From assembly GCA_951406725.2 (NCBI GenBank), contig OX597842.1:13640001-13704000 (forward strand): a DNA stretch of 64,000 nucleotides, read 5' to 3'. The stretch comes from Octopus vulgaris. Taxonomy: Eukaryota. The translations under genes and the position numbers were made by a program. The notes below the pieces were generated by a model. It had not been told where the DNA came from. It worked only from the letters and a program-made list of their open reading frames with translations, and did no database searches. How positions within the stretch are numbered: position 1 is the stretch's first letter; every line of letters starts with the position of its first letter. Positions 6,060-60,948 of the stretch are shown here, piece after piece.

Positions 6060-6830
6060 TAAAATCAAACAGCTCGGTCAAGTAATCGACAAAAGGGGGC
6101 GAAACCAGACCCTTCAAGTGCGACGACAATACGGAATATGCTTTCCCTAATAAACGTCAAATTGTTACAAGCATTTTTAGATTGGTAATCTACTATCGAG
6201 TATATATCTCAAACGTACACAACATAAGTGCTCCACTGAACGAGCTGTTAAAAACGGATACCAAATGGTTTGTGGAGGCGCAATGGCCCAGTGGTTAGGT
6301 GTTTCGCTCATAAACACACACATCACCCTGTCTGAGATTAGAACCTGCGATCCCTCGACCGCGAGTCCGCTGCTCTAACCACTAAGCCATGTGCCGCCGC
6401 ATTATATATGGCATAAAAAATTCCGCAGCTTTATACATGTTGGATGGTGTAGACTACAAACAAACCATCACCCATTGCTAACGAGTTTTGGATCCAAGAA
6501 AGGCATTCCAGTACATTCAGCAAATGGGTTGCAGCGATGAGGCACCATATTATTAAACTACGACTTCGCAATGGAATATTTACCTTCGAAAACGTTAGGA
6601 CAAGTTGACGGCCTAAACAAGTTAATACCCAGAAATGGTGGACCATTTGAGGATGCAGTAATAGCATCCTTAAGAGCCGAAGGGGAAATTAAACACATAA
6701 CGTGGAACATTGTACAAGTGTTATCAATAACTCTGTAGGAGACGAAGTGATACGCATCGAAAGTTAATTTTATTAATGAAGGAAAAATCTTTGTGGTCAC
6801 CTAGTGAGAAGGAGAAGATAGTCAAAGACT
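6060..6830 (+). mobile_element. Decayed Ty3/Gypsy pol remnant (RT connection and RNase H)
   Basis: Fragments translate to NVKLLQAF..YYRVYISNVHNISAPLNELLKTDTKW and FGSKKGIPVHSANGLQR*GTILLNYDFAMEYLPSKTLGQVDGL; stops and frameshifts present; SINE fragments inserted at about 6272-6398. Confidence 0.8.
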
Positions 6831-6848
6831 ATATAATATACATTCAAC

Positions 6849-7182
6849 AATATAAAGAATGGCCATAATAGGCCATTCGACTCACTAGACAGAGCAGCCA
6901 AACTCAAACCGCTAAATAGTTGTAATTCTGAAATTGAAAGAGAAATAAAAACATTTACCCTTTTCATCTCTGGACTATGCATTGTTTCGACAAACTTTCG
7001 TAAACAAATTAATTAAATTAAATTAAATTTATTTACAACTGGCGTGTCTCATCAGCAGAGAATCCGAGGACGAGTAATGGTTTTATTTCTCTTTCAATTT
7101 CAGAATTACAACTATTTAGCGGTTTGAGTTTGGCTGCTCTTTCTAGTGAGTTGAATGGCCTATTATGGCCATTCCTTATATT
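6849..7182. repeat. Inverted repeat, arms 6849-6950 and 7081-7182
   Basis: 102-bp arms are reverse complements with about 3 mismatches by eye. Confidence 0.93.
6967..7061 (-). ncRNA. Type I hammerhead ribozyme motif (Penelope-like/retrozyme style)
   Basis: Minus strand: TCTCTG-CTGATGA-GACA...TGTC-GAAA-C-AATGCATA-GTC^CAGAGA; 6-bp stem I, 4-bp stem II with AT-rich extension, minimal stem III with palindromic loop. Confidence 0.85.
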
Positions 7183-8067: not shown

Positions 8068-16540
<8,473 letters not shown>

Positions 16541-20451: not shown

Positions 20452-20523
20452 GTCAATTTGGGGTAATTATATCACAGAACTCAACGCAGAAACATTCCGA
20501 AACCTTTCCAGTTTATCAGATAT
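20452..20523 (+). CDS. LRR exon 6 (SIWGNYITELNAETFRNLSSLSD)
   Basis: ttgcag| 72 bp |gtaagt, phase 2-2. Confidence 0.92.
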
Positions 20524-21431: not shown

Positions 21432-21471
<40 letters not shown>

Positions 21472-21531
21472 GAAATATTAAAATTACTAAGTCTCTCTAA
21501 AAGAGAACAACGGCAGCGTTCCCGGAAAATA

Positions 21532-21874
21532 ATAGTTATCGCCATACTAATATGGCATTCTTATAAAAATAAGAATAAAGCTGTCCGCTTATTAGCTCCA
21601 TGAGGCCATCGCCTTAAGTTAGCTATTTGATACACAAACTGTATCCATATAACCTTCGAACAAGGGAGGTTAGTCGCTCCACACTACTTGACCGGCAGCT
21701 ACAGACGCGTTTCGGGGTATTGCCCCTTTTCAATGCAGCGTAGCCAGACTTGTTCGAAGGTTATATGGATACAGTTTGTGTATCAAATAGCTAACTTAAG
21801 GCGATGGCCTCATGGAGCTAATAAGCGGACAGCTTTATTCTTATTTTTATAAGAATGCCATATTAGTATGGCGA

Positions 21875-21881
<7 letters not shown>
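21532..21881. repeat. Inverted repeat, arms 21532-21664 and 21749-21881
   Basis: 133-bp arms appear to be exact reverse complements; the unit lies between (TA)n tracts. Confidence 0.95.
21698..21739 (-). ncRNA. Minimal type I hammerhead ribozyme motif, U3-A8 variant
   Basis: Minus strand: GCTGCA-TTGAAAA-GGGG-caata-CCCC-GAAA-C-GC-GTC^TGTAGC; stems I and II pair; palindromic ACGCGT in stem III. Confidence 0.75.
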
Positions 21882-21911
<30 letters not shown>

Positions 21912-21936
21912 AGATATATATATGTATATATATATG

Positions 21937-21970
<34 letters not shown>

Positions 21971-22254
21971 TATATACTGGTTTTTAAGCTAGTATAAAAC
22001 TTGTAAGCAACTGACCCTGGACAGGAAGATCTGTAAACAGATTTCTGACTTGTTTTGGAGAATATGTTGCTGTTGCTTTTTCCAGAGTCATATCCCCATG
22101 GTGATCATATTCGTCGCAGAAATCATGGAAAAAAAATCGCCGAATACAATCGCAGGAATAAAAACATAGGAATCCAAAATTTTAGGATTGCAGTTCCGGA
22201 TTCGGCCCGGAATCACTCATGATTTATTTTTCTTGCAATGGTGTCACTGTATTT

Positions 22255-23977: not shown

Positions 23978-24049
23978 ATATTTGAGGAACAACCGAATAC
24001 AAAACTTTGAGGATGGCACCTTCTTATTCCTTCCCAGTTTAACTAAGAT
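23978..24049 (+). CDS. LRR exon 7 (YLRNNRIQNFEDGTFLFLPSLTK)
   Basis: ttccag| 72 bp |gtatgt, phase 2-2; intron flanks are unrelated to those of exons 1-6. Confidence 0.92.
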
Positions 24050-33544: not shown

Positions 33545-36500
33545 CTCTCTTTTCTCTCTTTTACTTGTTTCAGTCATTTGACTGCGGCCATGCTGGAGCA
33601 CCGCCTTTAGTCGAGCAAATCGACCCCCGGGACTTATTCTTTGTAAGCCCAGTACTTATTCTATCGGTCTCTTTTCTCTTTTACTTGTTTCAGTCATTTG
33701 ACTGCGGCCATGCTGGAGCACCGCCTTTAGTCGAGCAAATCTACCCCGGGACTTATTCTTTGTAAGCCCAGTACTTATTCTATCGGTCTCTATTCTCTTT
33801 TACTTGTTTCAGTCATTTGACTGCGGCCATGCTGGAGCACCGCCTTTAGTCGAGCAAAACGACTCCCGCGACTTATTCGTTGTAAGCCCAGTACTTATTC
33901 TATCGGTCTCTTTTCTCTTTTACTTGTTTCAGTCATTTGACTGTGGCCATGCTGGAGCACCGCCTTTAGTCGAGCAAATCGACCCCGGGACTTATTCTTT
34001 GTAAGCCCTTACTTATTCTATCGGTCTCTTTTATCTTTTACTTGTCTCAGCCATTTGACTGTGGCCATGCTGGAGCACCGCCTTTTAGTCCAGCAAATCG
34101 ACCCCGGGACTTATTCTTTGTAAGCCCAGTACTTATTCTATCGGTCTCTTTTCTCTTTTTACTTGTTTCAGCCATTTGACTGTGGCCATGCTGGAGCACC
34201 GCCTTTTAGTCCAGCAAATCGACCCCGGGACTTATTCTTTGTAAGCCTAGTACTTATTCTATCGGTCTCTTTTCTCTTTTACTTGTTTCAGCCATTTGAC
34301 TGTGGCCATGCTGGAGCACCGCCTTTTAGTCCAGCAAATCGACCCGGGGACTTATTCTTTGTAAGCCCAGTACTTATTCTATCGGTCTCTTTCTCTTTTA
34401 CTTGTTTCAGTCATTTGACTGCGGCCATGCTGGAGCACCGCCTTTAGTCGAGCAAATCGACCCCCGCAACTTATTCCGTTGTAAGCCCAGTACTTATTCT
34501 ATCGGTCTCTTTCTCTTTTACTTGTTTCAGCCATTCGACTGTGGCCATGCTGGAGCACCGCCTTTAGTCGAGTAAATCGACCCCGGGACTTATTCTTTGT
34601 AAGCCCAGTACTTATTCTATCGGTCTCTTTTCTCTTTTACTTGTTTCAGCCATTTGACTGTGGCCATGCTGGAGCACCGCCTTTAGTCGAGTAAATCGAC
34701 CCCGGGACTTATTCTTTGTAAGCCCAGTACTTATTCTATCGGTCTCTTTTCTCTTTTACTTGTTTCAGCCATTTGACTGTGGCCATGCTGGAGCACCGCC
34801 TTTAGTCGAGTAATCGACCCCGGGACTTATTCTTTGTAAGCCCAGTACTTATTCTATCGGTCTCTTTTCTCTTTTACTTGTTTCAGTCATTTGACTGTGG
34901 CCATGCTGGAGCACCGCCTTTTAGTCCAGCAAATCGACCCCGGGACTTATTCTTTGTAAGCCCAGTAATTATTCTATCGGTCTCTTTTCTCTTTTACTTG
35001 TTTCAGCCATTTGACTGTGGCCATGCTGGAGCACCGCCTTTAGTCGAGTAAATCGACCCCGGGACTTATTCTTTGTAAGCCCAGTACGTATTCTATCGGT
35101 CTCTTTTCTCTTTTACTTGTTTCAGTCATTTGACTGCGGCCATGCTGGAGCACCGCCTTTTAGTCCAGCAAATCGACCCCGGGACTTATTCTTTGTAAGC
35201 CCAGTACTTATTCTATCGGTCTCTTTTCTCTTTTACTTGTTTCAGTCATTTGACTGCGGCCATGCTGGAGCACCGCCTTTTAGTCCAGCAAATCGACCCC
35301 GGGACTTATTCTTTGTAAGCCCAGTACTTATTCTATTGGTCTCTTTTCTCTTTTACTTGTTTCAGTCATTTGACTGCGGCCATGCTGGAGCACCGCCTTT
35401 TAGTCCAGCAAATCGACCCCGGGACTTATTCTTTGTAAGCCCAGTACTTATTCTATCGGTCTCTTTTCTCTTTAACTTGTTTCAGTCATTTGACTGTGGC
35501 CATGCTGGAGCACCGCCTTTTAGTCCAGCAAATCGACCCCGGGACTTATTCTTTGTAAGCCCAGTACTTATTCTATCGGTCTCTTTCTCTTTTACTTGTT
35601 TCAGTCATTTGACTGCGGCCATGCTGGAGCACCGCCTTTAATCGAGCAACTCGACCCAAGGACTTATTCTTTGTAAGCCTAGTACTTATTCTATCGGTCT
35701 CTTTTCTCTTTTACTTGTTTCAGTCATTTGACTGCGGCCATGCTGGAGCACCGCCTTTAGTCGAGCAAATCGACCCCCGGGACTTATTCTTTGTAAGCCT
35801 AGTACTTATTCTATCGGTCTCTTTTCTCTTTTACTTGTTTCAGTCATTTGACTGCGGCCATGCTGGAGCACCGCCTTTTAGTCCAGCAAATCGACCCCGG
35901 GACTTATTCTTTGTAAGCCCAGTACTTATTCTATCGGTCTCTTTTCTCTTTTACTTGTTTCAGTCATTTGACTGCGGGCCATGCTGGAGCACCGCCTTTT
36001 AGTCGAGCAAATCGACCCCGGGACTTATTCTTTGTAAGCCCAGTACTTATTCTATCGGTCTCTTTTCTCTTTTACTTGTTTCAGTCATTTGACTGCGGCA
36101 CATGCTGGAGCACCGCCTTTTAGTCCAGCAAATCGACCCTGGGACTTATTCTTTGGAAGCCCAGTACTTATTCTATCGGTCTCTTTTCTCTTTTACTTGT
36201 TTCAGTCATTTGACTGCGGCCATGCTGGAGCACCGGCTTTAGTCGAGCAAATCGACCCCCGGGACTTATTCTTTGTAAGCCTAGTACTTATTCTATCGGT
36301 CTCTTTTCTCTTTTACTTGTTTCAGTCATTTGACTGCGGCCATGCTGGAGCACCGCCTTTAGTCGAGTAAATCGACCCGGGACTTATTCTTTGTAAGCCC
36401 AGTACTTATTCTATCGGTCTCTTTTCTCTTTTACTTGTTTCAGTCATTTGACTGCGGCCATGCTGGAGCACCGCCTTTAGTCCAGCAAATCGACCCCGGG

Positions 36501-39500
36501 ACTTATTCTTTGTAAGCCCAGTACTTATTCTATCGGTCTCTTTTCTCTTTTACTTGTTTCAGTCATTTGACTGCGGCCATGCTGAGCACCGCCATTTTAG
36601 TCAGCAAATCGACCCCGGGACTTATTCTTTGTAAGCCCAGTACTTATTCTATCGGTCTCTTTTCTCTTTTACTTGTTTCAGTCATTTGACTGCGGCCATG
36701 CTGGAGCACCGCCTTTTAGCTGACGGACTTATTCTTTGTAACTGATCTTAGCTTTTACTTGTTTCAGTCCGCCTTCTGGAGACTTTAGTCCAGCAAATCG
36801 ACCCCAGGACTTATTCTTTGTAAGCCCAGTACTTATTCTATCGGTCTCTTTTCTCTTTTACTTGTTTCAGCCATTTGACTGTGGCCATGCTGGAGCACCG
36901 CCTTTAGTCGAGTAAATCGACCCGGGACTTATTCTTTGTAAGCCCAGTACTTATTCTATCGGTCTCTTTTCTCTTTTACTTGTTTCAGTCATTTGACTGC
37001 GGCCATGCTGGAGACACCGCCTTTAGTCGAGCAAATTGACCCCGGGACTTATTCTTTGTAAGCCTAGTACTTATTCTATTGGTCTCTTTTCTCTTTTACT
37101 TGTTTCAGTCATTTGACTGCGGCCATGCTAGAGCACCGCCTTTAGTCGAGCAAATCGACCCCCGGGACTTATTCTTTGTAAGCCTAGTACTTATTCTATC
37201 GGTCTCTTTTCTCTTTTACTTGTTTCAGCCATTTGACTGTGGCCATGCTGGAGCACCGCCTTTAGTCGAGTAAATCGACCCCGGACTTATTCTTTGTAAG
37301 CCCAGTACTTATTCTATCGGTCTCTTTTCTCTTTTACTTGTTTCAGTCATTTGACTGTGGCCATGCTGGAGCACCGCCTTTAGTCGAGTAAATCGACCCC
37401 GGGACTTATTCTTTGTAAGCCCAGTACTTATTCTATCGGTCTCTTTTCTCTTTTACTTGTTTCAGCCATTTGACTGTGGCCATGCTGGAGCACCGCCTTT
37501 AGTCGAGTAAATCGACCCCGGACTTATTCTTTGTAAGCCCAGTACTTATTCTATCGGTCTCTTTTCTCTTTTACTTGTTTCAGTCATTTGACTGCGGCCA
37601 TGCTGGAGCACCGCCTTTAGTCCAGCAAATCGACCCCGGGACTTATTCTTTGTAAGCCTAGTACTTATTCTATCGGTCTCTTTTTCTCTTTTACTTGTTT
37701 CAGCCATTTGACTGTGGCCATGCTGGAGCACCGCCTTTAGTCGAGTAAATCGACCCCGGGACTTATTCTTTGTAAGCCCAGTACTTATTCTATCGGTCTC
37801 TTTTCTCTTTTACTTGTTTCAGTCATTTGACTGCGGCCATGCTGGAGCACCGCCTTTAGTCGAGCAAATTGACCACGGGACTTATTCTTTGTAAGCCTAG
37901 TACTTATTCTATCGGTCTCTTTTCTCTTTCACTTGTTTCAGTCATTTGACTGCGGCCATGCTGGAGCACCGCCTTTAGTCGTGCAAATCGACCCCGGGAC
38001 TTATTCTTTGTAAGCCTAGTACTTATTCTATCGGTCGCTTTTCTCTTTTACTTGTTTCAGTCATTTGACTGCGGCCATGCTGGAGCACCGCCTTTAGTCG
38101 AGCAAATCGACCCCGGGACTTATTCTTTGTAAGCCCAGTACTTATTCTATCGGTCTCTTTTCTCTTTTACTTGTTTCAGTCATTTGACTGTGGCCATGCT
38201 GGAGCACCGCCTTTAGTCGAGTAAATCGACCCCGGGACTTATTCTTTGTAAGCCCAGTACTTATTCTATCGGTCTCTTTTCTCTTTTACTTGTTTCAGTC
38301 ATTTGACTGCGGCCATGCTGGAGCACCGCCTTTTAGTCCAGCAAATCGACCCCGGGACTTATTCTTTGTAAGCCTAGTACTTATTCTATCGGTCTCTTTT
38401 CTCTTTTACTTGTTTTAGCCATTTGACTGTGGCCATGCTGGAGCACCGCCTTTAGTCGAGTAAATCGACCCCGGGACTTATTCTTTGTAAGCCCAGTACT
38501 TATTCTATCGGTCTCTTTTCTCTTTTACTTGTTTCAGTCATTTGACTGCGGCCATGCTGGAGCACCGCCTTTAGTCGAGCAAATAGACCACGGGACTTAT
38601 TCTTTGTAAGCCTAGTACTTATTCTATCGGTCTCTTTTCTCTTTTACTTGTTTCAGTCATTTGACTGCGGCCATGCTCTAGCACCGCCTTTATTCGAGCA
38701 AATCGACCCCGGGACTTATTCTTTGTAAGCCTAGTACTTATTCTATCGGTCTCTTTTCTCTTTTACTTGTTTCAGTCATTTGACTGCGGCCATGCTGGAG
38801 CACCGCCTTTAGTCCAGCAAATCGACCCCGGGACTTATTCTTTGTAAGCCCAGTACTTATTCTATCGGTCTCTTTTCTCTTTTACTTGTTTCAGTCATTT
38901 GACTGCGGCCATGCTGGAGCACCGCCTTTAGTCCAGCAAATCGACCCCGGGACTTATTCTTTGTAAGCCCAGTACTTATTCTATCGGTCTCTTTTCTCTT
39001 TTACTTGTTTCAGTCATTTGACTGCGGCCATGCTGGAGCACCGCCTTTAATCGAGCAACTCGACCCAAGGACTTATTCTTTGTAAGCCTAGTACTTATTC
39101 TATCGGTCTCTTTTCTCTTTTACTTGTTTCAGTCATTTGACTGCGGCCATGCTGGAGCACCGCCTTTAGTCGAGCAAATCGACCCCCGGGACTTATTCTT
39201 TGTAAGCCTAGTACTTATTCTATCGGTCTCTTTTCTCTTTTACTTGTTTCAGTCATTTGACTGCGGCCATGCTAGACACCGCCTTTAGTCAGCAAATCGA
39301 CCCCGGGACTTATTCTTTGTAAGCCCAGTACTTATTCTATCGGTCTCTTTTCTCTTTTACTTGTTTCAGTCATTTGACTGCGGCCATGCTGGAGCACCGC
39401 CTTTTAGTCCAGCAAATCGACCCGGGACTTATTCTTTGTAAGCCCAGTACTTATTCTATCGGTCTCTTTTCTCTTTTACTTGTTTCAGTCATTTGACTGC

Positions 39501-42500
39501 GGCCATGCTGGAGCACCGCCTTTTAGTCCAGCAAATCGAACCTGGGACTTATTCTTTGTAAGCCCAGTACTTATTCTATCGGTCTCTTTTCTCTTTTACT
39601 TGTTTCAGTCATTTGACTGCGGCCATGCTGGAGCACCGGCTTTAGTCGAGCAAATCGACCCCCGGGACTTATTCTTTGTAAGCCTAGTACTTATTCTATC
39701 GGTCTCTTTTCTCTTTTACTTGTTTCAGTCATTTGACTGCGGCCATGCTGGAGCACCGCATTTAGTCGAGTAAATCGATCCCGGGACTTATTCTTTGTAA
39801 GCCCAGTACTTATTCTATCGGTCTCTTTTCTCTTTTACTTGTTTCAGTCATTTGACTGCGGCCATGCTGGAGCACCGCCTTTTAGTCGAGCAAATCGACC
39901 CCGGGACTTATTCTTTGTAAGCCCAGTACTTATTCTATCGGTCTCTTTTCTCTTTTACTTGTTTCAGTCATTTGACTGCGGCCATGCTGGAGCACTGCCT
40001 TTAGTCCAGCAAATCGACCCCGGGACTTATTCTTTGTAAGCCCAGTACTTATTCTATCGGTCTCTTTTCTCTTTTACTTGTTTCAGCCATTTGACTGTGG
40101 CCATGCTGGAGCACCGCCTTTAGTCGAGTAAATCGACCCCGGGACTTATTCTTTGTAAGCCCAGTACTTATTCTATCGGTCACTTTTCTCTTTTACTTGT
40201 TTCAGTCATTTGACTGCGGCCATGCTGGAGCATTGCCTTTAGTCGAGCAAATTGACCCCGGGACTTATTCTTTGTAAGCCTAGTACTTATTCTATCGGTC
40301 TCTTTTTCTCTTTTACTTGTTTCAGTCATTTGACTGCGGCCATGCTGGAGCACCGCCTTTAGTCGAGCAAATCGACCCCCGGGACTTATTCTTTGTAAGC
40401 CTAGTACTTATTCTATCGGTCTCTTTTCTCTTTTACTTGTTCCAGCCATTTGACTGTGGCCATGCTGGAGCACCGCCTTTAGTCGAGTAAATCGACCCCG
40501 GACTAATTCTTTGTAAGCCCAGTACTTATTCTATCGGTCTCTTTTCTCTTTTACTTGTTTCAGTCATTTGACTGTGGCCATGCTGGAGCACCGCCTTTAG
40601 TCGAGTAAATCGACCCCGGACTTATTCTTTGTAAGCCCAGTACTTATTCTATCGGTCTCTTTTCTCTTTTACTTGTTTCAGCCATTTGACTGTGGCCATG
40701 CTGGAGCACCGCCTTTAGTCGAGTAAATCGACCCCGGACTTATTCTTTGTAAGCCCAGTACTTATTCTATCGGTCTCTTTTCTCTTTTACTTGTTTCAGT
40801 CATTTGACTGCGGCCATGCTGGAGCACCGCCTTTTAGTCCAGCAAATCGACCCCGGGACTTATTCTTTGTAAGCCTAGTACTTATTCTATCGGTCTCTTT
40901 TCTCTTTTACTTGTTTCAGCCATTTGACTGTGGCCATGCTGGAGCACCGCCTTTAGTCGAGTAAATCGACCCCGGGACTTATTCTTTGTAAGCCTAGTAC
41001 TTATTCTATCGGTCTCTTTTCTCTTTTACTTGTTTCAGTCATTTGACTGCGGCCATGCTGGAGCACCGCCTTTATTCGAGCAAATCGACCCCGGGACTTA
41101 TTCTTTGTAAGCCTAGTACTTATTCTATCGGTCTGTTTTCTCTTTTACTTGTTTCAGTCATTTGACTGCGGCCATGCTGGAGCACCGCCTGTAGTCGAGC
41201 AAATCGACCCCGGGACTTATTCTTTGTAAGCCCAGTACTTATTCTATCGGTCTCTTTTCTCTTTTACTTGTTTCAGTCATTTGACTGCGGCCATGCTGGA
41301 GCACCGCCTTTAGTCGAGCAAATCGACCCCGGGACTTATTCTTTGTAAGCCCAGTACTTATTCTATCGGTCTCTTTTCTCTTTTACTTGTTTCAGTCATT
41401 TGACTGCGGCCATGCTGGAGCACCGCCTTTAGTCGAGCAAATCGACCCCGGGACTTATTCTTTGTAAGCCCAGTACTTATTCTATCGGTCTCTTTTCTCT
41501 TTTACTTGTTTCAGTCATTTGACTGTGGCCATGCTGGAGCACCGCCTTTAGTCGAGTAAATCGACCCCGGACTTATTCTTTGTAAGCCCAGTACTTATTC
41601 TATCGGTCTCTTTTCTCTTTTACTTGTTTCAGTCATTTGACTGCGGCCATGCTGGAGCACCGCCTTTTAGTCCAGCAAATCGACCCCGGGACTTATTCTT
41701 TGTAAGCCTAGTACTTATTCTATCGGTCTCTTTTCTCTTTTACTTGTTTCAGCCATTTGACTGTGGCCATGCTGGAGCACCGCCTTTAGTCGAGTAAATC
41801 GACCCCGGGACTTATTCTTTGTAAGCCCAGTACTTATTCTATCGGTCTCTTTTCTCTTTTACTTGTTTCAGTCATTTGACTGCGGCCATGCTGGAGCACC
41901 GCCTTTATTCGAGCAAATCGACCCCGGGACTTATTCTTTGTAAGCCTAGTACTTATTCTATCGGTCTCTTTTCTCTTTTACTTGTTTCAGTCATTTGACT
42001 GCGGCCATGCTGGAGCACCGCCTTTTAGTCCAGCAAATCGACCCCGGGACTTATTCTTTGTAAGCCCAGTACTTATTCTATCGGTCTCTTTTCTCTTTTA
42101 CTTGTTTCAGTCATTTGACTGCGGCCATGCTGGAGCACCGCCTTTAGTCGAGCAAATCGACCCCGGGACTTATTCTTTGTAAGCCCAGTACTTATTCTAT
42201 CGGTCTCTTTTCTCTTTTACTTGTTTCAGCCATTTGTCTGTGGCCATGCTGGGCACCGCCTTTAGTCGAGTAAATCGACCCCGGGACTTATTCTTTGTAA
42301 GCCCAGTACTTATTCTATCGGTCTCTTTTCTCTTTTACTTGTTTCAGTCATTTGACTGCGGCCATGCTGGAGCACCGCCTTTAGTCGAGCAAATTGACCC
42401 CGGGACTTATTCTTTGTAAGCCTAGTACTTATTCTATCGGTCTCTTTTCTCTTTTACTTGTCTCAGTCATTTGACTGCGGCCATGCTGGAGCACCGCCTT

Positions 42501-45500
42501 TATTCGAGGAAATCGACCCCGGGACTTATTCTTTGTAAGCCTAGTACTTATTCTATCGGTCTCTTTTCTCTTTTACTTGTTTCAGTCATTTGACTGCGGC
42601 CATGCTGGAGCACCGCCTTTATTCGAGCAAATCGACCCCGGGACTTATTCTTTGTAAGCCCAGTACTTATTCTATCGGTCTCTTTTCTCTTTTACTTGTT
42701 TCAGTCATTTGACTGCGGCCATGCTGGAGCACCGCCTTTAATCGAGCAAATCGACCCCGGGACTTATTCTTTGTAAGCCTAGTACTTATTCTATCGGTCT
42801 CTTTTCTCTTTTACTTGTTTCAGCCATTTGACTGTGGCCATGCTGGAGCACCGCCTTTAGTCGAGTAAATCGACCCCGGGACTTATTCTTTGTAAGCCCA
42901 GTACTTATTCTATCGGTCTCTTTTCTCTTTTACTTGTTTCAGTCATTTGACTGCGGCCATGCTGGAGCACCGCCTTTAGTCGAGCAAATTGACCCCGGGA
43001 CTTATTCTTTGTAAGCCTAGTACTTATTCTATTGGTCTCTTTTCTCTTTTACTTGTTTCAGTCATTTGACTGCGGCCATGCTGGAGCACCGCCTTTAGTC
43101 GAGCAAATCGACCCCCGGGACTTATTCTTTGTAAGCCTAGTACTTATTCTATCGGTCTCTTTTCTCTTTTACTTGTTTCAGCCATTTGACTGTGGCCATG
43201 CTGGAGCACCGCCTTTAGTCGAGTAAATCGACCCCGGACTTATTCTTTGTAAGCCCAGTACTTATTCTATCGGTCTCTTTTCTCTTTTACTTGTTTCAGT
43301 CATTTGACTGTGGCCATGCTGGAGCACCGCCTTTAGTCGAGTAAATCGACCCCGGGACTTATTCTTTGTAAGCCCAGTACTTATTCTATCGGTCTCTTTT
43401 TCTCTTTTACTTGTTTCAGCCATTTGACTGTGGCCATGCTGGAGCACCGCCTTTAGTCGAGTAAATCGACCCCGGACTTATTCTTTGTAAGCCCAGTACT
43501 TATTCTATCGGTCTCTTTTCTCTTTTACTTGTTTCAGTCATTTGACTGCGGCCATGCTGGAGCACCGCCTTTTAGTCCAGCAAATCGACCCCGGGACTTA
43601 TTCTTTGTAAGCCTAGTACTTATTCTATCGGTCTCTTTTCTCTTTTACTTGTTTCAGCCATTTGACTGTGGCCATGCTGGAGCACCGCCTTTAGTCGAGT
43701 AAATCGACCCCGGGACTTATTCTTTGTAAGCCCAGTACTTATTCTATCGGTCTCTTTTCTCTTTTACTTGTTTCAGTCATTTGACTGCGGCCATGCTGGA
43801 GCACCGCCTTTAGTCGAGCAAATTGACCACGGGACTTATTCTTTGTAAGCCTAGTACTTATTCTATCGGTCTCTTTTCTCTTTTACTTGTTTCAGTCATT
43901 TGACTGCGGCCATGCTGGAGCACCGCCTTTATTCGAGCAAATCGACCCCGGGACTTATTCTTTGTAAGCCTAGTACTTATTCTATCGGTCTCTTTTCTCT
44001 TTTACTTGTTTCAGTCATTTGACTGCGGCCATGCTGGAGCACCGCCTTTAGTCGAGCAAATTGACCACGGGACTTATTCTTTGTAAGCCTAGTACTTATT
44101 CTATCGGTCTCTTTTCTCTTTTACTTGTTTCAGTCATTTGACTGCGGCCATGCTGGAGCACCGCCTTTATTCGAGCAAATCGACCCCGGGACTTATTCTT
44201 TGTAAGCCTAGTACTTATTCTATCGGTCTCTTTTCTCTTTTACTTGTTTCAGTCATTTGACTGCGGCCATGCTGGAGCACCGCCTTTAGTCCAGCAAATC
44301 GACCCCGGGACTTATTCTTTGTAAGCCCAGTACTTATTCTATCGGTCTCTTTTCTCTTTTACTTGTTTCAGCCATTTGACTGTGGCCATGCTGGAGCACC
44401 GCCTTTAGTCGAGTAAATCGACCCCGGGACTTATTCTTTGTAAGCCCAGTACTAATTCTATCGGTCTCTTTTCTCTTTTACTTGTTTCAGTCATTTGACT
44501 GCGGCCATGCTGGAGCACCGCCTTTAGTCGAGCAAATTGACCCCGGGACTTATTCTTTGTAAGCCTAGTACTTATTCTATCGGTCTCTTTTCTCTTTTAC
44601 TTGTTTCAGTCATTTGACTGCGGCCATGCTGGAGCACCGCCTTTATTCGAGCAAATCGACCCCGGGACTTATTCTTTGTAAGCCTAGTACTTATTCTATC
44701 GGTCTCTTTTCTCTTTTACTTGTTTCAGTCATTTGACTGCGGCCATGCTGGAGCACCGCCTTTAGTCGAGCAAATCGACCCCGGGACTTATTCTTTGTAA
44801 GCCCAGTACTTATTCTATCGGTCTCTTTTCTCTTTTACTTGTTTCAGTCATTTGACTGCGGCCATGCTGGAGCACCGCCTTTAGTCGAGCAAATCGACCC
44901 CGGGACTTATTCTTTGTAAGCCCAGTACTTATTCTATCGGTCTCTTTTCTCTTTTACTTGTTTCAGTCATTTGACTGCGGCCATGCTGGAGCACCGCCTT
45001 TAGTCCAGCAAATAGACCCCGGGACTTATTCTTTGTAAGCCCAGTACTTATTCTATTGGTCTCTTTTCTCTTTTACTTGTTTCAGCCATTTGACTGTGGC
45101 CATGCTGGAGCACCGCCTTTAGTCGAGTAAATCGACCCCGGGACTTATTCTTTGTAAGCCTAGTACTTATTCTATCGGTCTCTTTTCTCTTTTACTTGTT
45201 TCAGTCATTTGACTGCGGCCATGCTGGAGCACCGCCTTTAGTCGAGCAAATTGACCCCGGGACTTATTCTTTGTAAGCCTAGTACTTATTCTATCGGTCT
45301 GTTTTCTCTTTTACTTGTTTCAGTCATTTGACTGCGGCCATGCTGGAGCACCGCCTTTAGTCGAGCAAATCGACCCCGGGACTTATTCTTTGTAAGCCCA
45401 GTACTTATTCTTTCGGTCTCTTTTCTCTTTTACTTGTTTCAGTCATTTGACTGCGGCCATGCTGGAGCACCGCCTTTAGTCGAGCAAATCGACCCCGGGA

Positions 45501-48500
45501 CTTATTCTTTGTAAGCCCAGTACTTATTCTATCGGTCTCTTTTCTCTTTCACTTGTTTCAGTCATTTGACTGCGGCCATGCTGGAGCACCGCCTTTAGTC
45601 GAGCAAATCGACCCCGGGACTTATTCTTTGTAAGCCCAGTACTTATTCTATCGGTCTCTTTTCTCTTTTACTTGTTTCAGTCATTTGACTGCGGCCATGC
45701 TGGAGCACCGCCTTTAGTCGGGCAAATCGACCCCGGGACTTATTCTTTGTAAGCCTAGTACTTATTCTATCGGTCTCTTTTCTCTTTTACTTGTTTCAGT
45801 CATTTGACTGCGGCCATGCTGGAGCACCGCCTTTATTCGAGCAAATCGACCCCGGGACTTATTCTTTGTAAGCCTAGTACTTATTCTATCGGTCTCTTTT
45901 CTCTTTTACTTGTTTCAGTCATTTGACTGCGGCCATGCTGGAGCACCGCCTTTAGTCGAGCAAATTGACCACGGGACTTATTCTTTGTAAGCCTAGTACT
46001 TATTCTATCGGTCTCTTTTCTCTTTTACTTGTTTCAGTCATTTGACTGCGGCCATGCTGGAGCACCGCCTTTATTCGAGCAAATCGACCCCGGGACTTAT
46101 TCTTTGTAAGCCTAGTACTTATTCTATCGGTCTCTTTTCTCTTTTACTTGTTTCAGTCATTTGACTGCGGCCATGCTGGAGCACCGCCTTTAGTCCAGCA
46201 AATCGACCCCCGGGACTTATTCTTTGTAAGCCCAGTACTTATTCTATCGGTCTCTTTTCTCTTTTACTTGTTTCAGCCATTTGACTGTGGCCATGCTGGA
46301 GCACCGCCTTTAGTCGAGTAAATCGACCCCGGGACTTATTCTTTGTAAGCCCAGTACTAATTCTATCGGTCTCTTTTCTCTTTTACTTGTTTCAGTCATT
46401 TGACTGCGGCCATGCTGGAGCACCGCCTTTAGTCGAGCAAATTGACCCCGGGACTTATTCTTTGTAAGCCTAGTACTTATTCTATCGGTCTCTTTTCTCT
46501 TTTACTTGTTTCAGTCATTTGACTGCGGCCATGCTGGAGCACCGCCTTTATTCGAGCAAATCGACCCCGGGACTTATTCTTTGTAAGCCTAGTACTTATT
46601 CTATCGGTCTCTTTTCTCTTTTACTTGTTTCAGTCATTTGACTGCGGCCATGCTGGAGCACCGCCTTTAGTCGAGCAAATCGACCCCGGGACTTATTCTT
46701 TGTAAGCCCAGTACTTATTCTATCGGTCTCTTTTCTCTTTTACTTGTTTCAGTCATTTGACTGCGGCCATGCTGGAGCACCGCCTTTAGTCGAGCAAATC
46801 GACCCCGGGACTTATTCTTTGTAAGCCCAGTACTTATTCTATCGGTCTCTTTTCTCTTTTACTTGTTTCAGTCATTTGACTGCGGCCATGCTGGAGCACC
46901 GCCTTTAGTCCAGCAAATAGACCCCGGGACTTATTCTTTGTAAGCCCAGTACTTATTCTATTGGTCTCTTTTCTCTTTTACTTGTTTCAGCCATTTGACT
47001 GTGGCCATGCTGGAGCACCGCCTTTAGTCGAGTAAATCGACCCCGGGACTTATTCTTTGTAAGCCTAGTACTTATTCTATCGGTCTCTTTTCTCTTTTAC
47101 TTGTTTCAGTCATTTGACTGCGGCCATGCTGGAGCACCGCCTTTAGTCGAGCAAATTGACCCCGGGACTTATTCTTTGTAAGCCTAGTACTTATTCTATC
47201 GGTCTGTTTTCTCTTTTACTTGTTTCAGTCATTTGACTGCGGCCATGCTGGAGCACCGCCTGTAGTCGAGCAAATCGACCCCGGGACTTATTCTTTGTAA
47301 GCCCAGTACTTATTCTTTCGGTCTCTTTTCTCTTTTACTTGTTTCAGTCATTTGACTGCGGCCATGCTGGAGCACCGCCTTTAGTCGAGCAAATCGACCC
47401 CGGGACTTATTCTTTGTAAGCCCAGTACTTATTCTATCGGTCTCTTTTCTCTTTCACTTGTTTCAGTCATTTGACTGCGGCCATGCTGGAGCACCGCCTT
47501 TAGTCGAGCAAATCGACCCCGGGACTTATTCTTTGTAAGCCCAGTACTTATTCTATCGGTCTCTTTTCTCTTTTACTTGTTTCAGTCATTTGACTGCGGC
47601 CATGCTGGAGCACCGCCTTTAGTCGGGCAAATCGACCCCGGGACTTATTCTTTGTAAGCCTAGTACTTATTCTATCGGTCTCTTTTCTCTTTTACTTGTT
47701 TCAGTCATTTGACTGCGGCCATGCTGGAGCACCGCCTTTAGTCGAGCAAATCGACCCCGGGACTTATTCTTTGTAAGCCCAGTACTTATTCTATCGGTCT
47801 CTTTTCTCTTTTACTTGTTTCAGTCATTTGACTGCGGCCATGCTGGAGCACCGCCTTTAGTCGAGCAAATCGACCCCGGGACTTATTCTTTGTAAGCCCA
47901 GTACTTATTCTATCGGTCTCTTTTCTCTTTTACTTGTTTCAGTCATTTGACTGCGGCCATGCTGGAGCACCGCCTTTAGTCGAGCAAATCGACCCCGGGA
48001 CTTATTCTTTGTAAGCCCAGTACTTATTCTATCGGTCTCTTTTCTCTTTTACTTGTTTCAGTCATTTGACTGTGGCCATGCTGGAGCACCGCCTTTAGTC
48101 GAGTAAATCGACCCCGGGACTTATTCTTTGTAAGCCCAGTACTTATTCTATCGGTCTCTTTTCTCTTTACTTGTTTCAGTCATTTGACTGCGGCCATGCT
48201 GGAGCACCGCCTTTTAGTCCAGCAAATCGACCCCGGGACTTATTCTTTGTAAGCCTAGTACTTATTCTATCGGTCTCTTTTCTCTTTTACTTGTTTCAGC
48301 CATTTGACTGTGGCCATGCTGGAGCACCGCCTTTAGTCGAGTAAATCGACCCCGGGACTTATTCTTTGTAAGCCCAGTACTTATTCTATCGGTCTCTTTT
48401 CTCTTTTACTTGTTTCAGTCATTTGACTGCGGCCATGCTGGAGCACCGCCTTTAGTCGAGCAAATTGACCACGGGACTTATTCTTTGTAAGCCTAGTACT

Positions 48501-51500
48501 TATTCTATCGGTCTCTTTTCTCTTTTACTTGTTTCAGTCATTTGACTGCGGCCATGCTCTAGCACCGCCTTTATTCGAGCAAATCGACCCCGGGACTTAT
48601 TCTTTGTAAGCCTAGTACTTATTCTATCGGTCTCTTTTCTCTTTTACTTGTTTCAGTCATTTGACTGCGGCCATGCTGGAGCACCGCCTTTTAGTCCAGC
48701 AAATCGACCCCGGGACTTATTCTTTGTAAGCCCAGTACTTATTCTATCGGTCTCTTTTCTCTTTTACTTGTTTCAGTCATTTGACTGTGGCCATGCTGGA
48801 GCACCGCCTTTTAGTCCAGCAAATCGACCCCGGGACTTATTCTTTGTAAGCCCAGTACTTATTCTATCGGTCTCTTTTCTCTTTTACTTGTTTCAGTCAT
48901 TTGACTGCGGCCATGCTGGAGCACCGCCTTTAATCGAGCAACTCGACCCAAGGACTTATTCTTTGTAAGCCTAGTACTTATTCTATCGGTCTCTTTTCTC
49001 TTTTACTTGTTTCAGTCATTTGACTGCGGCCATGCTGGAGCACCGCCTTTAGTCGAGCAAATCGACCCCGGGACTTATTCTTTGTAAGCCTAGTACTTAT
49101 TCTATCGGTCTCTTTTCTCTTTTACTTGTTTCAGTCATTTGACTGCGGCCATGCTGGAGCACCGCCTTTTAGTCCAGCAAATCGACCCCGGGACTTATTC
49201 TTTGTAAGCCCAGTACTTATTCTATCGGTCTCTTTTCTCTTTTACTTGTTTCAGTCATTTGACTGCGGCCATGCTGGAGCACCGCCTTTTAGTCCAGCAA
49301 ATCGACCCCGGGACTTATTCTTTGTAAGCCCAGTACTTATTCTATCGGTCTCTTTTCTCTTTTACTTGTTTCAGTCATTTGACTGCGGCCATGCTGGAGC
49401 ACCGCCTTTTAGTCCAGCAAATCGAACCTGGGACTTATTCTTTGTAAGCCCAGTACTTATTCTATCGGTCTCTTTTCTCTTTTACTTGTTTCAGTCATTT
49501 GACTGCGGCCATGCTGGAGCACCGGCTTTAGTCGAGCAAATCGACCCCGGGACTTATTCTTTGTAAGCCTAGTACTTATTCTATCGGTCTCTTTTCTCTT
49601 TTACTTGTTTCAGTCATTTGACTGCGGCCATGCTGGAGCACCGCATTTAGTCGAGTAAATCGAACCCGGGACTTATTCTTTGTAAGCCCAGTACTTATTC
49701 TATCGGTCTCTTTTCTCTTTTACTTGTTTCAGTCATTTGACTGCGGCCATGCTGGAGCACCGCCTTTAGTCGAGCAAATCGACCCCCGGGACTTATTCTT
49801 TGTAAGCCCAGTACTTATTCTATCGGTCTCTTTTCTCTTTTACTTGTTTCAGTCATTTGACTGCGGCCATGCTGGAGCACTGCCTTTAGTCCAGCAAATC
49901 GACCCCGGGACTTATTCTTTGTAAGCCCAGTACTTATTCTATCGGTCTCTTTTCTCTTTTACTTGTTTCAGCCATTTGACTGTGGCCATGCTGGAGCACC
50001 GCCTTTAGTCGAGTAAATCGACCCGGGACTTATTCTTTGTAAGCCCAGTACTTATTCTATCGGTCACTTTTCTCTTTTACTTGTTTCAGTCATTTGACTG
50101 CGGCCATGCTGGAGCATTGCCTTTAGTCGAGCAAATTGACCCCGGGACTTATTCTTTGTAAGCCTAGTACTTATTCTATCGGTCTCTTTTCTCTTTTACT
50201 TGTTTCAGTCATTTGACTGCGGCCATGCTGGAGCACCGCCTTTAGTCGAGCAAATCGACCCCCGGGACTTATTCTTTGTAAGCCTAGTACTTATTCTATC
50301 GGTCTCTTTTCTCTTTTACTTGTTCCAGCCATTTGACTGTGGCCATGCTGGAGCACCGCCTTTAGTCGAGTAAATCGACCCCGGACTAATTCTTTGTAAG
50401 CCCAGTACTTATTCTATCGGTCTCTTTTCTCTTTTACTTGTTTCAGTCATTTGACTGTGGCCATGCTGGAGCACCGCCTTTAGTCGAGTAAATCGACCCC
50501 GGACTTATTCTTTGTAAGCCCAGTACTTATTCTATCGGTCGCTTTTCTCTTTTACTTGTTTCAGCCATTTGACTGTGGCCATGCTGGAGCACCGCCTTTA
50601 GTCGAGTAAATCGACCCCGGACTTATTCTTTGTAAGCCCAGTACTTATTCTATCGGTCTCTTTTCTCTTTTACTTGTTTCAGTCATTTGACTGCGGCCAT
50701 GCTGGAGCACCGCCTTTTAGTCCAGCAAATCGACCCCGGGACTTATTCTTTGTAAGCCTAGTACTTATTCTATCGGTCTCTTTTCTCTTTTACTTGTTTC
50801 AGCCATTTGACTGTGGCCATGCTGGAGCACCGCCTTTAGTCGAGTAAATCGACCCCGGGACTTATTCTTTGTAAGCCCAGTACTTATTCTATCGGTCTCT
50901 TTTCTCTTTACTTGTTTCAGTCATTTGACTGCGGCCATGCTGGAGCACCGCCTTTAGTCGAGCAAATTGACCCCGGGACTTATTCTTTGTAAGCCTAGTA
51001 CTTATTCTATCGGTCTCTTTTCTCTTTTACTTGTTTCAGTCATTTGACTGCGGCCATGCTGGAGCACCGCCTTTATTCGAGCAAATCGACCCCGGGACTT
51101 ATTCTTTGTAAGCCTAGTACTTATTCTATCGGTCTGTTTTCTCTTTTACTTGTTTCAGTCATTTGACTGCGGCCATGCTGGAGCACCGCCTGTAGTCGAG
51201 CAAATCGACCCCGGGACTTATTCTTTGTAAGCCCAGTACTTATTCTATCGGTCTCTTTTCTCTTTTACTTGTTTCAGTCATTTGACTGCGGCCATGCTGG
51301 AGCACCGCCTTTAGTCGAGCAAATCGACCCCGGGACTTATTCTTTGTAAGCCCAGTACTTATTCTATCGGTCTCTTTTCTCTTTTACTTGTTTCAGTCAT
51401 TTGACTGCGGCCATGCTGGAGCACCGCCTTTAGTCGAGCAAATCGACCCCGGGACTTATTCTTTGTAAGCCCAGTACTTATTCTATCGGTCTCTTTTCTC

Positions 51501-53385
51501 TTTACTTGTTTCAGTCATTTGACTGTGCCATGCTGGAGCACCGCCTTTAGTCGAGTAAATCGACCCCGGACTTATTCTTTGTAAGCCCAGTACTTATTCT
51601 ATCGGTCTCTTTTCTCTTTACTTGTTTCAGTCATTTGACTGCGGCCATGCTGGAGCACCGCCTTTTAGTCCAGCAAATCGACCCGGGACTTATTCTTTGT
51701 AAGCCCTAGTACTTATTCTATCGGTCTCTTTTCTCTTTTACTTGTTTCAGTCATTTGACTGTGGCCATGCTGGAGCACCGCCTTTAGTCGAGTAAATCGA
51801 CCCCGGGACTTATTCTTTGTAAGCCCAGTACTTATTCTATCGGTCTCTTTTCTCTTTTACTTGTTTCAGTCATTTGACTGCGGCCATGCTGGAGCACCGC
51901 CTTTAGTCGAGCAAATCGACCCCGGGACTTATTCTTTGTAAGCCCAGTACTTATTCTATCGGTCTCTTTTCTCTTTTACTTGTTTCAGTCATTTGACTGC
52001 GGCCATGCTGGAGCACCGCCTTTTAGTCGAGCAAATCGACCCCGGGACTTATTCTTTGTAAGCCCAGTACTTATTCTATCGGTCTCTTTTCTCTTTTACT
52101 TGTTTCAGTCATTTGACTGCGGCCATGCTGGAGCACCGCCTTTAGTCGAGCAAATCGACCCCGGGACTTATTCTTTGTAAGCCCAGTACTTATTCTATCG
52201 GTCTCTTTTCTCTTTTACTTGTTTCAGTCATTTGACTGTGGCCATGCTGGAGCACCGCCTTTAGTCGAGTAAATCGACCCCGGGACTTATTCTTTGTAAG
52301 CCCAGTACTTATTCTATCGGTCTCTTTTCTCTTTACTTGTTTCAGTCATTTGACTGCGGCCATGCTGGAGCACCGCCTTTAGTCGAGCAAATCGACCCCG
52401 GGACTTATTCTTTGTAAGCCTAGTACTTATTCTATCGGTCTCTTTTTCTCTTTTACTTGTTTCAGTCATTTGACTGCGGCCATGCTGGAGCACCGCCTTT
52501 ATTCGAGCAAATCGACCCCGGGACTTATTCTTTGTAAGCCTAGTACTTATTCTATCGGTCTCTTTTCTCTTTTACTTGTTTCAGTCATTTGACTGCGGCC
52601 ATGCTGGAGCACCGCCTTTTATTCGAGCAAATCGACCCCGGGACTTATTCTTTGTAAGCCTAGTACTTATTCTATCGGTCTCTTTTTCTCTCTTTTTCAG
52701 TCATTTCTTTACTTGTTTCAGTCATTCTTTGTAAGCCTAGTACTTATTCTATCGGTCTCTTTTCTCTTTTACTCTTTTACTTGTTTGCGGCCATGCTGGA
52801 GCACCGCCTTTAGTCGAGCAAATCGACCCCGGGACTTATTCTTTGTAAGCCTAGTACTTATTCTATCGGTCTCTTTTCTCTTTTCTCTTTTACTTGTTTC
52901 AGTCATTTGTGCTTTTACTTGTTTCAGCCTGTGGCCATGCTGGAGCACCGCCTTTAGTCGAGCAAATCGACCCCGGGACTTATTCTTTGTAAGCCTAGTA
53001 CTTATTCTATCGGTCTCTTTTTTTTCTTGTTTCTTTTACTTGTTTCAGTCATTTGACTGCGGCCATGCTAGAGTCACCGCCTTTAATCGAGCAAATCGAC
53101 CCCGGGACTTATTCTTTGTAAGCCCAGTACTTATACTATCGGTCTCTTTCTCTTTTACTTGTTTCAGTCATTTGACAGTGGCCATGCTGGAGCACCGCCT
53201 TTAGTCGAGCAAATCGACCCCGGGACTTATTCTTTGTAAGCCCAGTACTTATTCTATCGGTCTCTTTTACTCTTTTACTTGTTTCAGTCATTTGACTGCG
53301 GCCATGCTGGAGCACCGCCTTTAGTCGAGTAGATCGACCCCGGGACTTATTCTTTTGTAAGCCTTGTACTTATTCTATCGGTCTT
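33545..53385 (-). repeat. About 19.8-kb tandem array of a 119/120-bp unit derived from the SINE C 3' tail (roughly 165 copies by length)
   Basis: The unit is the reverse complement of the family C tail (compare 5888-6010); the array runs directly into the rest of a family C copy at about 53385. Confidence 0.97.
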
Positions 53386-57396: not shown

Positions 57397-57718
57397 TGTT
57401 TATGTGACATGAGAACGTTGTATATTATCGGCATTTATAACACATCATTTAGCCGTTCAAGAATTTGGACCTGGAGATCTCCATTTCCCCCGATTTCGAG
57501 AGCCACCTCCCAGTGGTGTCGGGCGTCAACGAAGAGGCCTCGACTACAAGACGACCAAAGTTTTTTTTTCCAAGGTCCGGGGTCTCCTGCCCCTAAGCCC
57601 TAGACCATCACCTAATCACCCTTACCCGTCTTGTTGCTTAACGAACAACAACACATCATTTAAATGCAGTAAATATCAATAAATTTTACAGGGGATTATC
57701 TATGCGCTTATCTTTCAT

Positions 57719-58237
57719 CATTCGCTAGACAAAACTTGCCTCTCTACTCTCACTTTCCTCTTCAAGTGATACTTGAAGAAGTTGATGAGGGATTGACCAG
57801 AGAGGAAAGTGTTTGTCTCTAATCCTTTCAGGCGCGTCCACCAGATACATTCTTTCGTCATAGCCACAAGGATGATAAAAATAGCTCTTCCTTCCCGTTT
57901 GAAGGAAGGAGGCGTGACAATATTGACGATAGACTCGGCTGATAAACCGACACGTCCCACACGTGACAGCAGTTGTTCGACATAAGCCCACAGGTCGGAA
58001 ATTGTTGGACACTGCACGAGTGCGTGCAGAACGGTTTCGTTGCTCTGACCGCATTTCGGGCACGTCGGCCCCGTGTTTCTCGAGCCATGTCTATAGAGCT
58101 TATCCCGAACGGTAGCGCTTCTCAATAACACTGCCAGGCCAGGGATCTCTGGAAGTTGTCCATAGGTCCCGGCCCGAAAGTCGTCTTGAACAGGCGGGTC
58201 AGGTATTCCTCGTCGACGCCCAGATTCACTCCGAGAT
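57719..58237 (-). mobile_element. Inverted 519-bp fragment of LINE ORF2 C-terminus
   Basis: Reverse complement of 59569-60087; encodes the CPKC...H...C zinc knuckle. Confidence 0.9.
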
Positions 58238-58340
58238 TTCCTTCTTACCTTTTTGATAATTTTAATAGCAATGATTGGACGTTTTTTTATCATCTTAAAT
58301 ATCTCCTGTGTTGTTATGATTTCTGTGTTTACCGTTACAG

Positions 58341-58524
58341 CCTGTTTGCCGCCGCGAATTATCATTGGACGGTGTTACATTGAAGTTTGAAAAATCCTGC
58401 AGCACATACAGAAAATGCCTTGAAGATATCAGAAACAATACCTTTACCTGCAACAAATGGACCAGTGGTACCTCTTGCGTTGCTTGTTGCACCGGAAACT
58501 TATGCAACAAGAACAATTTCACTG
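58341..58524 (+). CDS. Exon 10: C-terminal half of the Ly6/uPAR domain (PVCRREL...CVACCTGNLCNKNNFT)
   Basis: ttacag| 184 bp |gtaagt, phase 0-1; CCxxxxCN signature of three-finger LU domains. Confidence 0.92.
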
Positions 58525-58565
58525 GTAAGTGTTGTTTACTTTTTGATATAAATATACCTGATTTA

Positions 58566-58780
58566 TTTACTACCCACAAGAGGGGACAAATAAGGACAGA
58601 CAAACGGATTAAGTCGATTATATCGACCCCAGCACTTAACTGGTACTTAATTTATCAACCCCGAAAGGATGAAAGGCCGAAGTCGACCTCGGCGGAATTT
58701 GAACTCAGAACGTAGCGGCAGACGAAATACGGCAACGCATTTCGCCCGGCGTGCTAACGTTTCTGCCAGCTCGCCGCCTT
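58566..58780 (-). mobile_element. SINE family B (further copies at about 59050-59262 and 62450-62600)
   Basis: Long TSD gatataaatatacctgatttatt on both flanks. Confidence 0.88.
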
Positions 58781-59456
58781 GATATAAATATACCTGATTT
58801 ATTAAAGATGTGTCGTCAAAAACATTAAAATAGCAAATGTATAATATTTTACCCACATACATATGCACACACACACACACACACACACGTGTGTGTGAAT
58901 AAAAATCCATAGTAAATTTACCGACATCGCGAATTCAACTCACTCTCCATAACCGACAAAAAAATTTAATCGGTTTTCAAAACTTACTGAGTTCTCATCA
59001 AACGTGTATTAATAACATAAGGAATCCCAGAGAAGCAAATAACCATTATTATTTCTTTACTACCCACGAGGGGCAAAACACAGAGAGGACAAACAAGGAC
59101 AGACAAACGGATTAAGTCGATTATATCGACTCCAGTGCGTAACTGGTACTTATTTAATCGACCCCGAAAGGATGAAAGGCAAAGTCGACCTCAGCGGAAT
59201 TTGAACTCACAACGTAACGGCAGACGAAATACCGTTAACGTGTTAACGTTTCTGCCAGCTCGACATTCTATATACATAACAAATGCAGAAGTTTTACAGA
59301 ACTTGAGCTACTAATTTTTAAATTTTTTTCCAAGCCCCTTTTAACTCTGTCGTCCTTCTGCGGTTAGCGACAAACAAAATGTAATCGTGTGGTGTCCATG
59401 CGTTTGTCAGTTGTAAATGAATCCGCTGTCAGCTTCCTTCATCTCATTAAACCAAC

Positions 59457-60680: not shown

Positions 60681-60948
60681 GTGAGTAGTAATTTTCTCCT
60701 GCGCTTGCACGCACACACGCACGCACACATACATGGATATAGAGCTAACAGACGAGATCGAGAGATTCTCAGAACAGAAGAGACTTATCAGCGCTCGGAT
60801 GATTTGATCCTACACTCCGAAGTCTTTAGCATGGCTCGGATCAGCGGGGTAAAGTGTGGGTATAAGGCGAATTCAAGGGCAGCAGATTTGGAATCAATGA
60901 TGCAAATGAACAAATAAAACAGAATACACACACACACACACACACATA

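Follow-up and report, generated by a model that had tools for sequence, protein, structure and literature searches.

A hairpin with a predicted hammerhead ribozyme in an octopus LRR gene intron as a truncated retrozyme copy, likely inserted by a Penelope-like enzyme

In the 64,000-nt stretch of the Octopus vulgaris genome analysed here (hereafter the window), a hairpin with a predicted hammerhead ribozyme between its arms was found in an intron of an LRR gene. Our main reading, to which we assign a probability of about 0.88 on the basis of sequence comparisons, is that this hairpin is a 5'-truncated copy of a young 363-nt retrozyme with a U3-A8 core, likely inserted into an intronic (TA)n tract by a Penelope-like RT/endonuclease that primed both cut strands. 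In the mechanism that we propose, source arrays would be transcribed from an snRNA-type promoter in the preceding unit, with a predicted start near m302 (m1 being the first base 3' of the predicted cleavage site, and a natural 363-nt monomer serving as reference). The hammerheads would then cut, probably as dimers via their palindromic stem III, to release monomers that may circularise; the enzyme would start at two internal RNA sites, m175 and m238, one per DNA strand, and the two cDNAs would be joined head to head. A more specific version is tentative, its chance falling somewhat short of even: a single complex starts one strand at m175 and the other at m238 of one RNA that is probably circular, and goes round it until up to several units have been copied, while the retrozyme has its own snRNA-type promoter and a Tx1 LINE targets the start from that promoter. 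If true, such a division of labour would allow a direct in vitro test of animal retrozyme movement.

Structure of the window element and its host gene

The sequence-only reading of the window had described 133-bp perfect inverted arms enclosing an 84-bp spacer. The two arms (21532-21664 and 21749-21881) are indeed exact reverse complements of 133 bp each with 84 bp between them, but the left boundary had to be moved, as the true start of the element is at 21466, 66 bp further left. The main arm (21466..21749, minus strand) contains 284 nt of the 363-nt monomer, running from m318 to m363 and then from m1 to m238; it is 5'-truncated, matches positions 1435-1718 of locus L001 at 99% and differs from the family majority sequence at two positions. 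The earlier view of a young insertion is supported. The inverted arm (21749..21881, plus strand) is also 5'-truncated, comprises m40-m172 of the same 363-nt monomer and overlaps the main arm by 1 nt at the junction. What had been taken for the left arm (21532..21664, minus strand) is the m40-m172 portion of the main arm that the inverted arm duplicates, and a one-sided tail (21466..21531, minus strand, about m173-m238) lies between the two preferred 3' ends of the family described below. The element is bordered by (TA)n target tracts at 21434..21465 on the left and 21882..21976 on the right.

The host gene was traced on the plus strand from 1381 to 24049 of the window as seven 72-nt LRR exons, with at least one more exon just upstream and none found past 24049. 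Pfam searches with 131 and 109 window ORFs gave weak LRR hints, which an exon scan then confirmed. Since the element is flanked by plus-strand exons at 20452..20523 upstream and 23978..24049 downstream, each of 72 nt and bounded by AG/GT, it is intronic and its minus-strand hammerhead is antisense to the gene, as had been claimed.

The window copy is likely inert as a ribozyme, because it lacks m239-m317 (the predicted promoter and start) and a dimer partner, and because its single hammerhead has a stem III of 2 bp and lies on the strand opposite to the host pre-mRNA. It would nevertheless give a 133-bp dsRNA stem in an intron of that pre-mRNA. An intronic position and a perfect stem of this length might suggest that the hairpin was formed or kept for host regulation, as an editing substrate, for small RNAs or for control of the LRR gene; we consider this very improbable, as hundreds of other copies match this one at 99% and insertion yields this shape by default. 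Taken by itself the locus is unremarkable, likely an inert insertion, and its family is of modest importance.

The predicted hammerhead and its U3-A8 core

The predicted type I hammerhead occupies 21694..21745 of the minus strand, with U3 at 21733, A8 at 21728, C17 at 21704 and the predicted cut at 21704/21703. Its layout consists of a 6-bp stem I, the core UUGAAAA, stem II GGGG/CCCC, GAAA, the palindromic stem III ACGCGU and the GUC site, and it contains the conserved 3-8 pair, G12-A13-A14 (GAA) and an NUH site (GUC). In a type I scan of both window strands this hammerhead was the sole match; a second window hammerhead near 7000 is absent from the result because the scan admitted only a short stem II. 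No Rfam hammerhead model matched the 141 bases searched, even at E<=10.

Stem covariation was assessed over 39 sequences, 7 of them young or intermediate and 32 old, from which loci fetched as position-3 variants and three further young rows were excluded. Paired bases occupied 95% of the cells and 8 of the 17 pairs showed two-sided changes, although the cells are not independent events, coming as they do from only two or three related subfamilies, and reflect a handful of events rather than 45. The covariation score was higher than those of all 500 shuffles and all slid controls. In stem III, the palindrome ACGCGU of the young copies is replaced by ACUAGU in the old subfamily, both sides being altered, as expected if the ribozyme acts as a dimer. 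The layout and the covariation together bear out the minus-strand type I fold with a U3-A8 pair put forward in the sequence-only reading, and the compensatory changes in stems I to III of the older subfamily indicate that the predicted fold was under selection.

The U3-A8 pair is fixed in the young copies: where the rest of the pattern is intact, 0/768 differ at position 3 and 0/768 at position 8. It is likewise present in an older subfamily about 75% identical to the young one (L126:1065-1351 and L132-L161), whose 3' ends lie near m174 and m235 with TA flanks, and in which U3 was found in 35/35 and A8 in 35/35 aligned copies, whereas at position 7 the A has given way to U or G. Fixation in both young and old copies dates the swap to before the two subfamilies. 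Genome-wide, the older subfamilies, to which the following counts are confined because the patterns exclude the shorter loop of the young subfamily, contained 109 U3-A8 cores, 5 cores changed only at position 3, 4 changed only at position 8 and none with C3-G8. The earlier view of a compensatory double change stands relative to the canonical core, but no swap can be seen here, as the mutants at positions 3 and 8 are all single. At the old locus L201, C3 occurs with A8 in both arms, so that an RNA with a broken core pair was apparently still copied. This suggests that copying can proceed without an intact core, in agreement with work on a purified Penelope-like protein (PMC11167929). Side by side with these, an intermediate subfamily (L216, L220 and L221) has C at position 7 and an A-U pair in place of G-C at the base of stem II. 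A search for sisters of the monomer with C3-G8 gave 18 matches, none of which resembles the monomer around its ribozyme; the sole BLAST match, at L242 (56 nt, 79%), is a separate nearby fragment.

Replacement of C3-G8 by U3-A8 has been reported for the minimal hammerheads of the Penelope-like element (PLE) Cercyon of Schistosoma mansoni (Cervera and de la Pena 2014, PMC4209133), with about 1,300 matches in Schistosoma PLE hammerheads; the same paper also describes Schistosoma hammerheads that occur in pairs on opposite strands, 100-700 bp from each other. Different from Cercyon, the octopus hammerhead has a helix I of 6 bp and a helix II of 4 bp, as in canonical metazoan type I hammerheads, and the octopus copies are nearly identical and belong to a tandem retrozyme rather than to a pseudo-LTR (pLTR).

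A young family of non-LTR retrozymes

The genome (2.8 Gb in 227 contigs) was searched with a 34-nt core pattern, which gave 768 exact matches, rising to 1191 when one mismatch was allowed, whereas the reversed control gave 0; the motif is therefore not due to chance. Family loci are scattered over many contigs, and copies elsewhere in the genome are arranged in head-to-tail tandem with a period of 362-364 nt and one hammerhead core per unit. The monomer has no coding capacity, the longest open frame in three joined monomers being 65 codons, and it is strongly self-paired, with a circular MFE of -119.8 (z = -6.4 against 60 shuffles). Judged by its sequence, the family is a young, protein-free non-LTR retrozyme with over 700 copies. 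Parts of the monomer are also contained in contigs of runs presumed to be RNA, a kind of contig that cannot reveal strand, ends or circles; among these contigs, none bridging an empty site was found.

Non-LTR retrozymes have been described from coral, mussel and axolotl as tandem non-coding monomers, 170-400 nt in length, each with a single type I hammerhead (Cervera and de la Pena 2020, PMC7229834). The octopus family is like them in this organisation, and like metazoan non-LTR retrozymes it shows low GC, a strongly self-paired circular fold, a short palindromic stem III and dispersed copies (PMC7229834). Unlike those retrozymes, the octopus family has a U3-A8 core; it is also two-armed, with two fixed ends in (TA)n, while the main text of that paper does not use the word 'inverted'. 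Our literature search found no paper on cephalopod retrozymes or on two-start inverted retrozyme insertions, supplementary family lists and Repbase being outside its scope.

Insertion anatomy across family loci

Insertion anatomy was analysed at 60 loci on two contigs (C1 and C2), taken from the first 100 core matches listed with the last 5 excluded and without L003. All of these loci had been chosen by an exact core, which biases the sample against ribozyme mutants, not toward any end. Two arms joined head to head were found at 43 loci and a single arm at 15, while one locus is interrupted by a LINE and one is complex. At 40 of the 43 two-arm loci, the end of one arm falls within m165-182 and that of its partner within m228-243, and at the other 3 of the 43 one end lies elsewhere. 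Both arms ended at the same site in 0/43 cases (p ~2e-12 against even choice). TA-rich DNA follows 91 of 100 such arm ends, and the arms overlap at the junction by 1-6 nt in 32/43 two-arm loci. The exact 416-bp structure of the window element was found at none of the 60 loci.

These loci also show how the hairpin comes by its form. The hammerhead is present once, in one arm, at 20/43 two-arm loci, as in the window, and in both arms at 16/43, indicating that a ribozyme comes to lie in the loop according to where the shorter cDNA stopped. Perfect arms are common, since 12 of 42 loci with overlapping arms show no difference at all between them.

The sequence-only reading had proposed that foldback elements bearing a ribozyme in their loop form a recurring class and had pointed to a second hairpin-hammerhead, unrelated in sequence. 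That second element (6801..7182, minus strand, intronic) is a truncated copy plus an inverted piece of a separate tandem family, unrelated to the first and with a 470-nt unit; this family has a C3-G8 core, TA flanks and preferred ends around positions 143 and 230 of that unit, and the stem II of its hammerhead has a long AU-rich extension. The architecture does recur, both in the 43 two-armed loci of the 60 and in this second element, which is the same kind of scar. The proposed new class, by contrast, is not supported, as the arms are an insertion by-product, the ribozyme is frequently in both of them and 17 of the 60 loci are not simple two-arm structures. A DNA element of foldback or MITE-like type, whose terminal inverted repeats enclose a ribozyme in the loop, would accord with the perfect 133-bp arms, the TA flanks and the second, unrelated hairpin-hammerhead within the same gene, and yet it is almost certainly the wrong explanation: arm lengths and junctions vary at nearly every locus, the two outer ends correspond to different points of the monomer, tandem units and copies with one arm are frequent, and the second element is a scar of the same type left by the 470-nt family. 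The two hairpin-hammerheads in one gene reflect the abundance of such families. In genomes of this kind, hairpins with a looped hammerhead are to be expected as scars, and they seed long perfect dsRNA stems in introns.

The arms of a locus resemble each other more than they resemble other loci. Divergence between the arms within a locus is 0.8% (159/19,842 comparisons) versus 2.1% between loci, and the arms of one locus are concordant at 256 of 259 polymorphic calls, where 160 would be expected. Among private variants, 12 are common to all copies within their own locus (6 of these span both arms) versus 89 in single copies. Arm agreement and shared private variants fit copying from one RNA per locus, so the template of each insertion would be either a circle or a homogeneous multimer. 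In a check for an A-to-I footprint, 4 of the 12 locus-wide private variants, a small count, were A>G. The 5' ends of the cDNAs showed no clear enrichment at the predicted cut site or start site; their clearest cluster is at m37-54. At this cluster the monomer has a short palindrome, whose pairing partner in the circular fold is m280-295, and several junctions fold back at this place.

In L1-type twin priming, inverted 5' pieces with short overlaps are generated. Such a process, driven by a LINE like the Tx1 LINE found inside the monomer, could mobilise the RNA and make the inversion, and the inverted 5' pieces, the short overlaps and the tie between the Tx1 LINE and the retrozyme family all agree with it. 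It is nonetheless highly improbable: poly(A) is lacking, the 3' ends of both arms fall at fixed internal sites, the arms often overlap in sequence by more than one unit, and the Tx1 copies, which lie in the monomer as insertions with a duplication of 16 bp, have no (TA)n at their ends.

A Penelope-like enzyme as the candidate mobiliser

Published PLE insertions leave a footprint of partial tandems, an inverted 5'-truncated copy, a tail at one end and a bias toward microsatellites (Craig et al. 2021, PMC8557442), and a purified PLE protein cuts and extends both strands, with the tail bounded by two internal RNA start sites (Frangieh et al. 2024, PMC11167929). The octopus family is like these insertions in its partial tandems, the inverted 5'-truncated copy, the one-sided tail, the microsatellite target and two putative internal starts. 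It differs from them in being a retrozyme without an ORF, in having a tail of 63 nt, which exceeds the published 30-40 nt, and in lacking a sequence link to a sampled autonomous family.

A young PLE-like family of the same genome (L305-L328) has open frames of up to about 717 codons and forms head-to-head pairs in (TA)n; it is called PLE-like from reading its sequence, Pfam having given no match on the 284-residue piece scanned. In this family two 3' ends, separated by about 70 nt, occur before (TA)n (n=24: 10 short, 11 long, 3 other), a spacing close to the retrozyme tail length, and both intact head-to-head pairs checked (2/2) combine one short and one long end. No significant similarity to the monomer was detected in the sampled parts of three PLE-like families (the ~717-codon family, an older GIY-YIG family and a 6.2-kb family), so that the enzyme class proposed here is drawn from insertion anatomy and not from shared sequence. 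The 6.2-kb element (L196-L200, G000:C10:97.80-97.83 Mb) is young, PLE-like and tandem; it has a frame of 884-1008 codons and a long stretch rich in CA, and a scan found no hammerhead in it.

Could the monomer itself be the pLTR of an autonomous PLE, its copies being truncated 3' ends? U3-A8 cores do occur in PLE pLTRs (PMC4209133), Xenopus retrozymes are related to pLTRs (10.64898/2026.07.22.740005), and locus L081 has PLE coding sequence immediately upstream. However, arms of up to 2000 nt among the 60 loci and of 2700 nt at L195 are pure monomer repeats with no ORF, where in an autonomous PLE an ORF for RT and GIY-YIG would separate the repeats. At L081 the PLE shares 95% identity with its master and is older than the 98% retrozyme, L021 carries the same PLE at another junction, and the monomer is unlike the sampled parts of the three PLE-like families. 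We therefore regard a pLTR origin as unlikely. A template switch between retrozyme and PLE at L081 was also considered and rejected, as the PLE part is older.

The reading that we favour, a retrozyme likely mobilised by a Penelope-like enzyme, agrees with existing proposals. PLEs have been proposed as mobilisers of metazoan non-LTR retrozymes (PMC7229834), and vertebrate retrozymes, which likewise form monomers, dimers and multimers, have been proposed to depend on PLEs (Li, Clavereau, Pollet 2026, 10.64898/2026.07.22.740005); both non-LTR retrozymes and the PLE-mobiliser hypothesis are thus already in the literature. The vertebrate case rests on co-occurrence and pLTR homology, whereas the octopus case rests on insertion anatomy, with no pLTR homologue found, and this anatomy points the same way as the published proposal. 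The end asymmetry of 40/40 loci supplies the existing in vitro PLE assay with a sharp prediction. A point against our reading is that in Xenopus 8 of 9 retrozyme dimers failed to cleave in vitro (10.64898/2026.07.22.740005).

A promoter lead and the Tx1-like LINE

When the monomer was compared with the upstream DNA of 20 U2 genes, a 10-nt match to one class of U2 upstream sequence was found. The matching stretch precedes m302 by about 55 nt, the same spacing as in U2, and is kept in the old subfamily, in line with the snRNA-type promoter proposed above. The position m302 is also where a Tx1-like LINE meets the retrozyme, as the 3' end of this LINE is followed by the m301-302 sequence in 19/19 exact 3'-end matches. 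The LINE (L192 at G000:C4:65043500-65052500, L193, L194 and L206-L224) is 5.4 kb long, with a zinc-knuckle ORF1 and an endonuclease-RT ORF2. Its insertions in the retrozyme are found in tandem runs as well as in three or more haplotypes of the retrozyme, and both full-length cases checked have a 16-bp duplication. Targeting of other transposons by Tx1 elements has been published (PMC4494074). A similar Tx1-like 3' end precedes U2 genes in L248 and L255.

Other repeats in the window

The window contains several further repeats. One is a 20-kb array of 119-bp units at 33548-53384, and an 8.5-kb (TCA)n tract lies at 8068-16539. A 49-bp minisatellite was found at 60947-62400, and inverted arms of 544 bp containing LINE zf-RVT fragments at 57707-60099.
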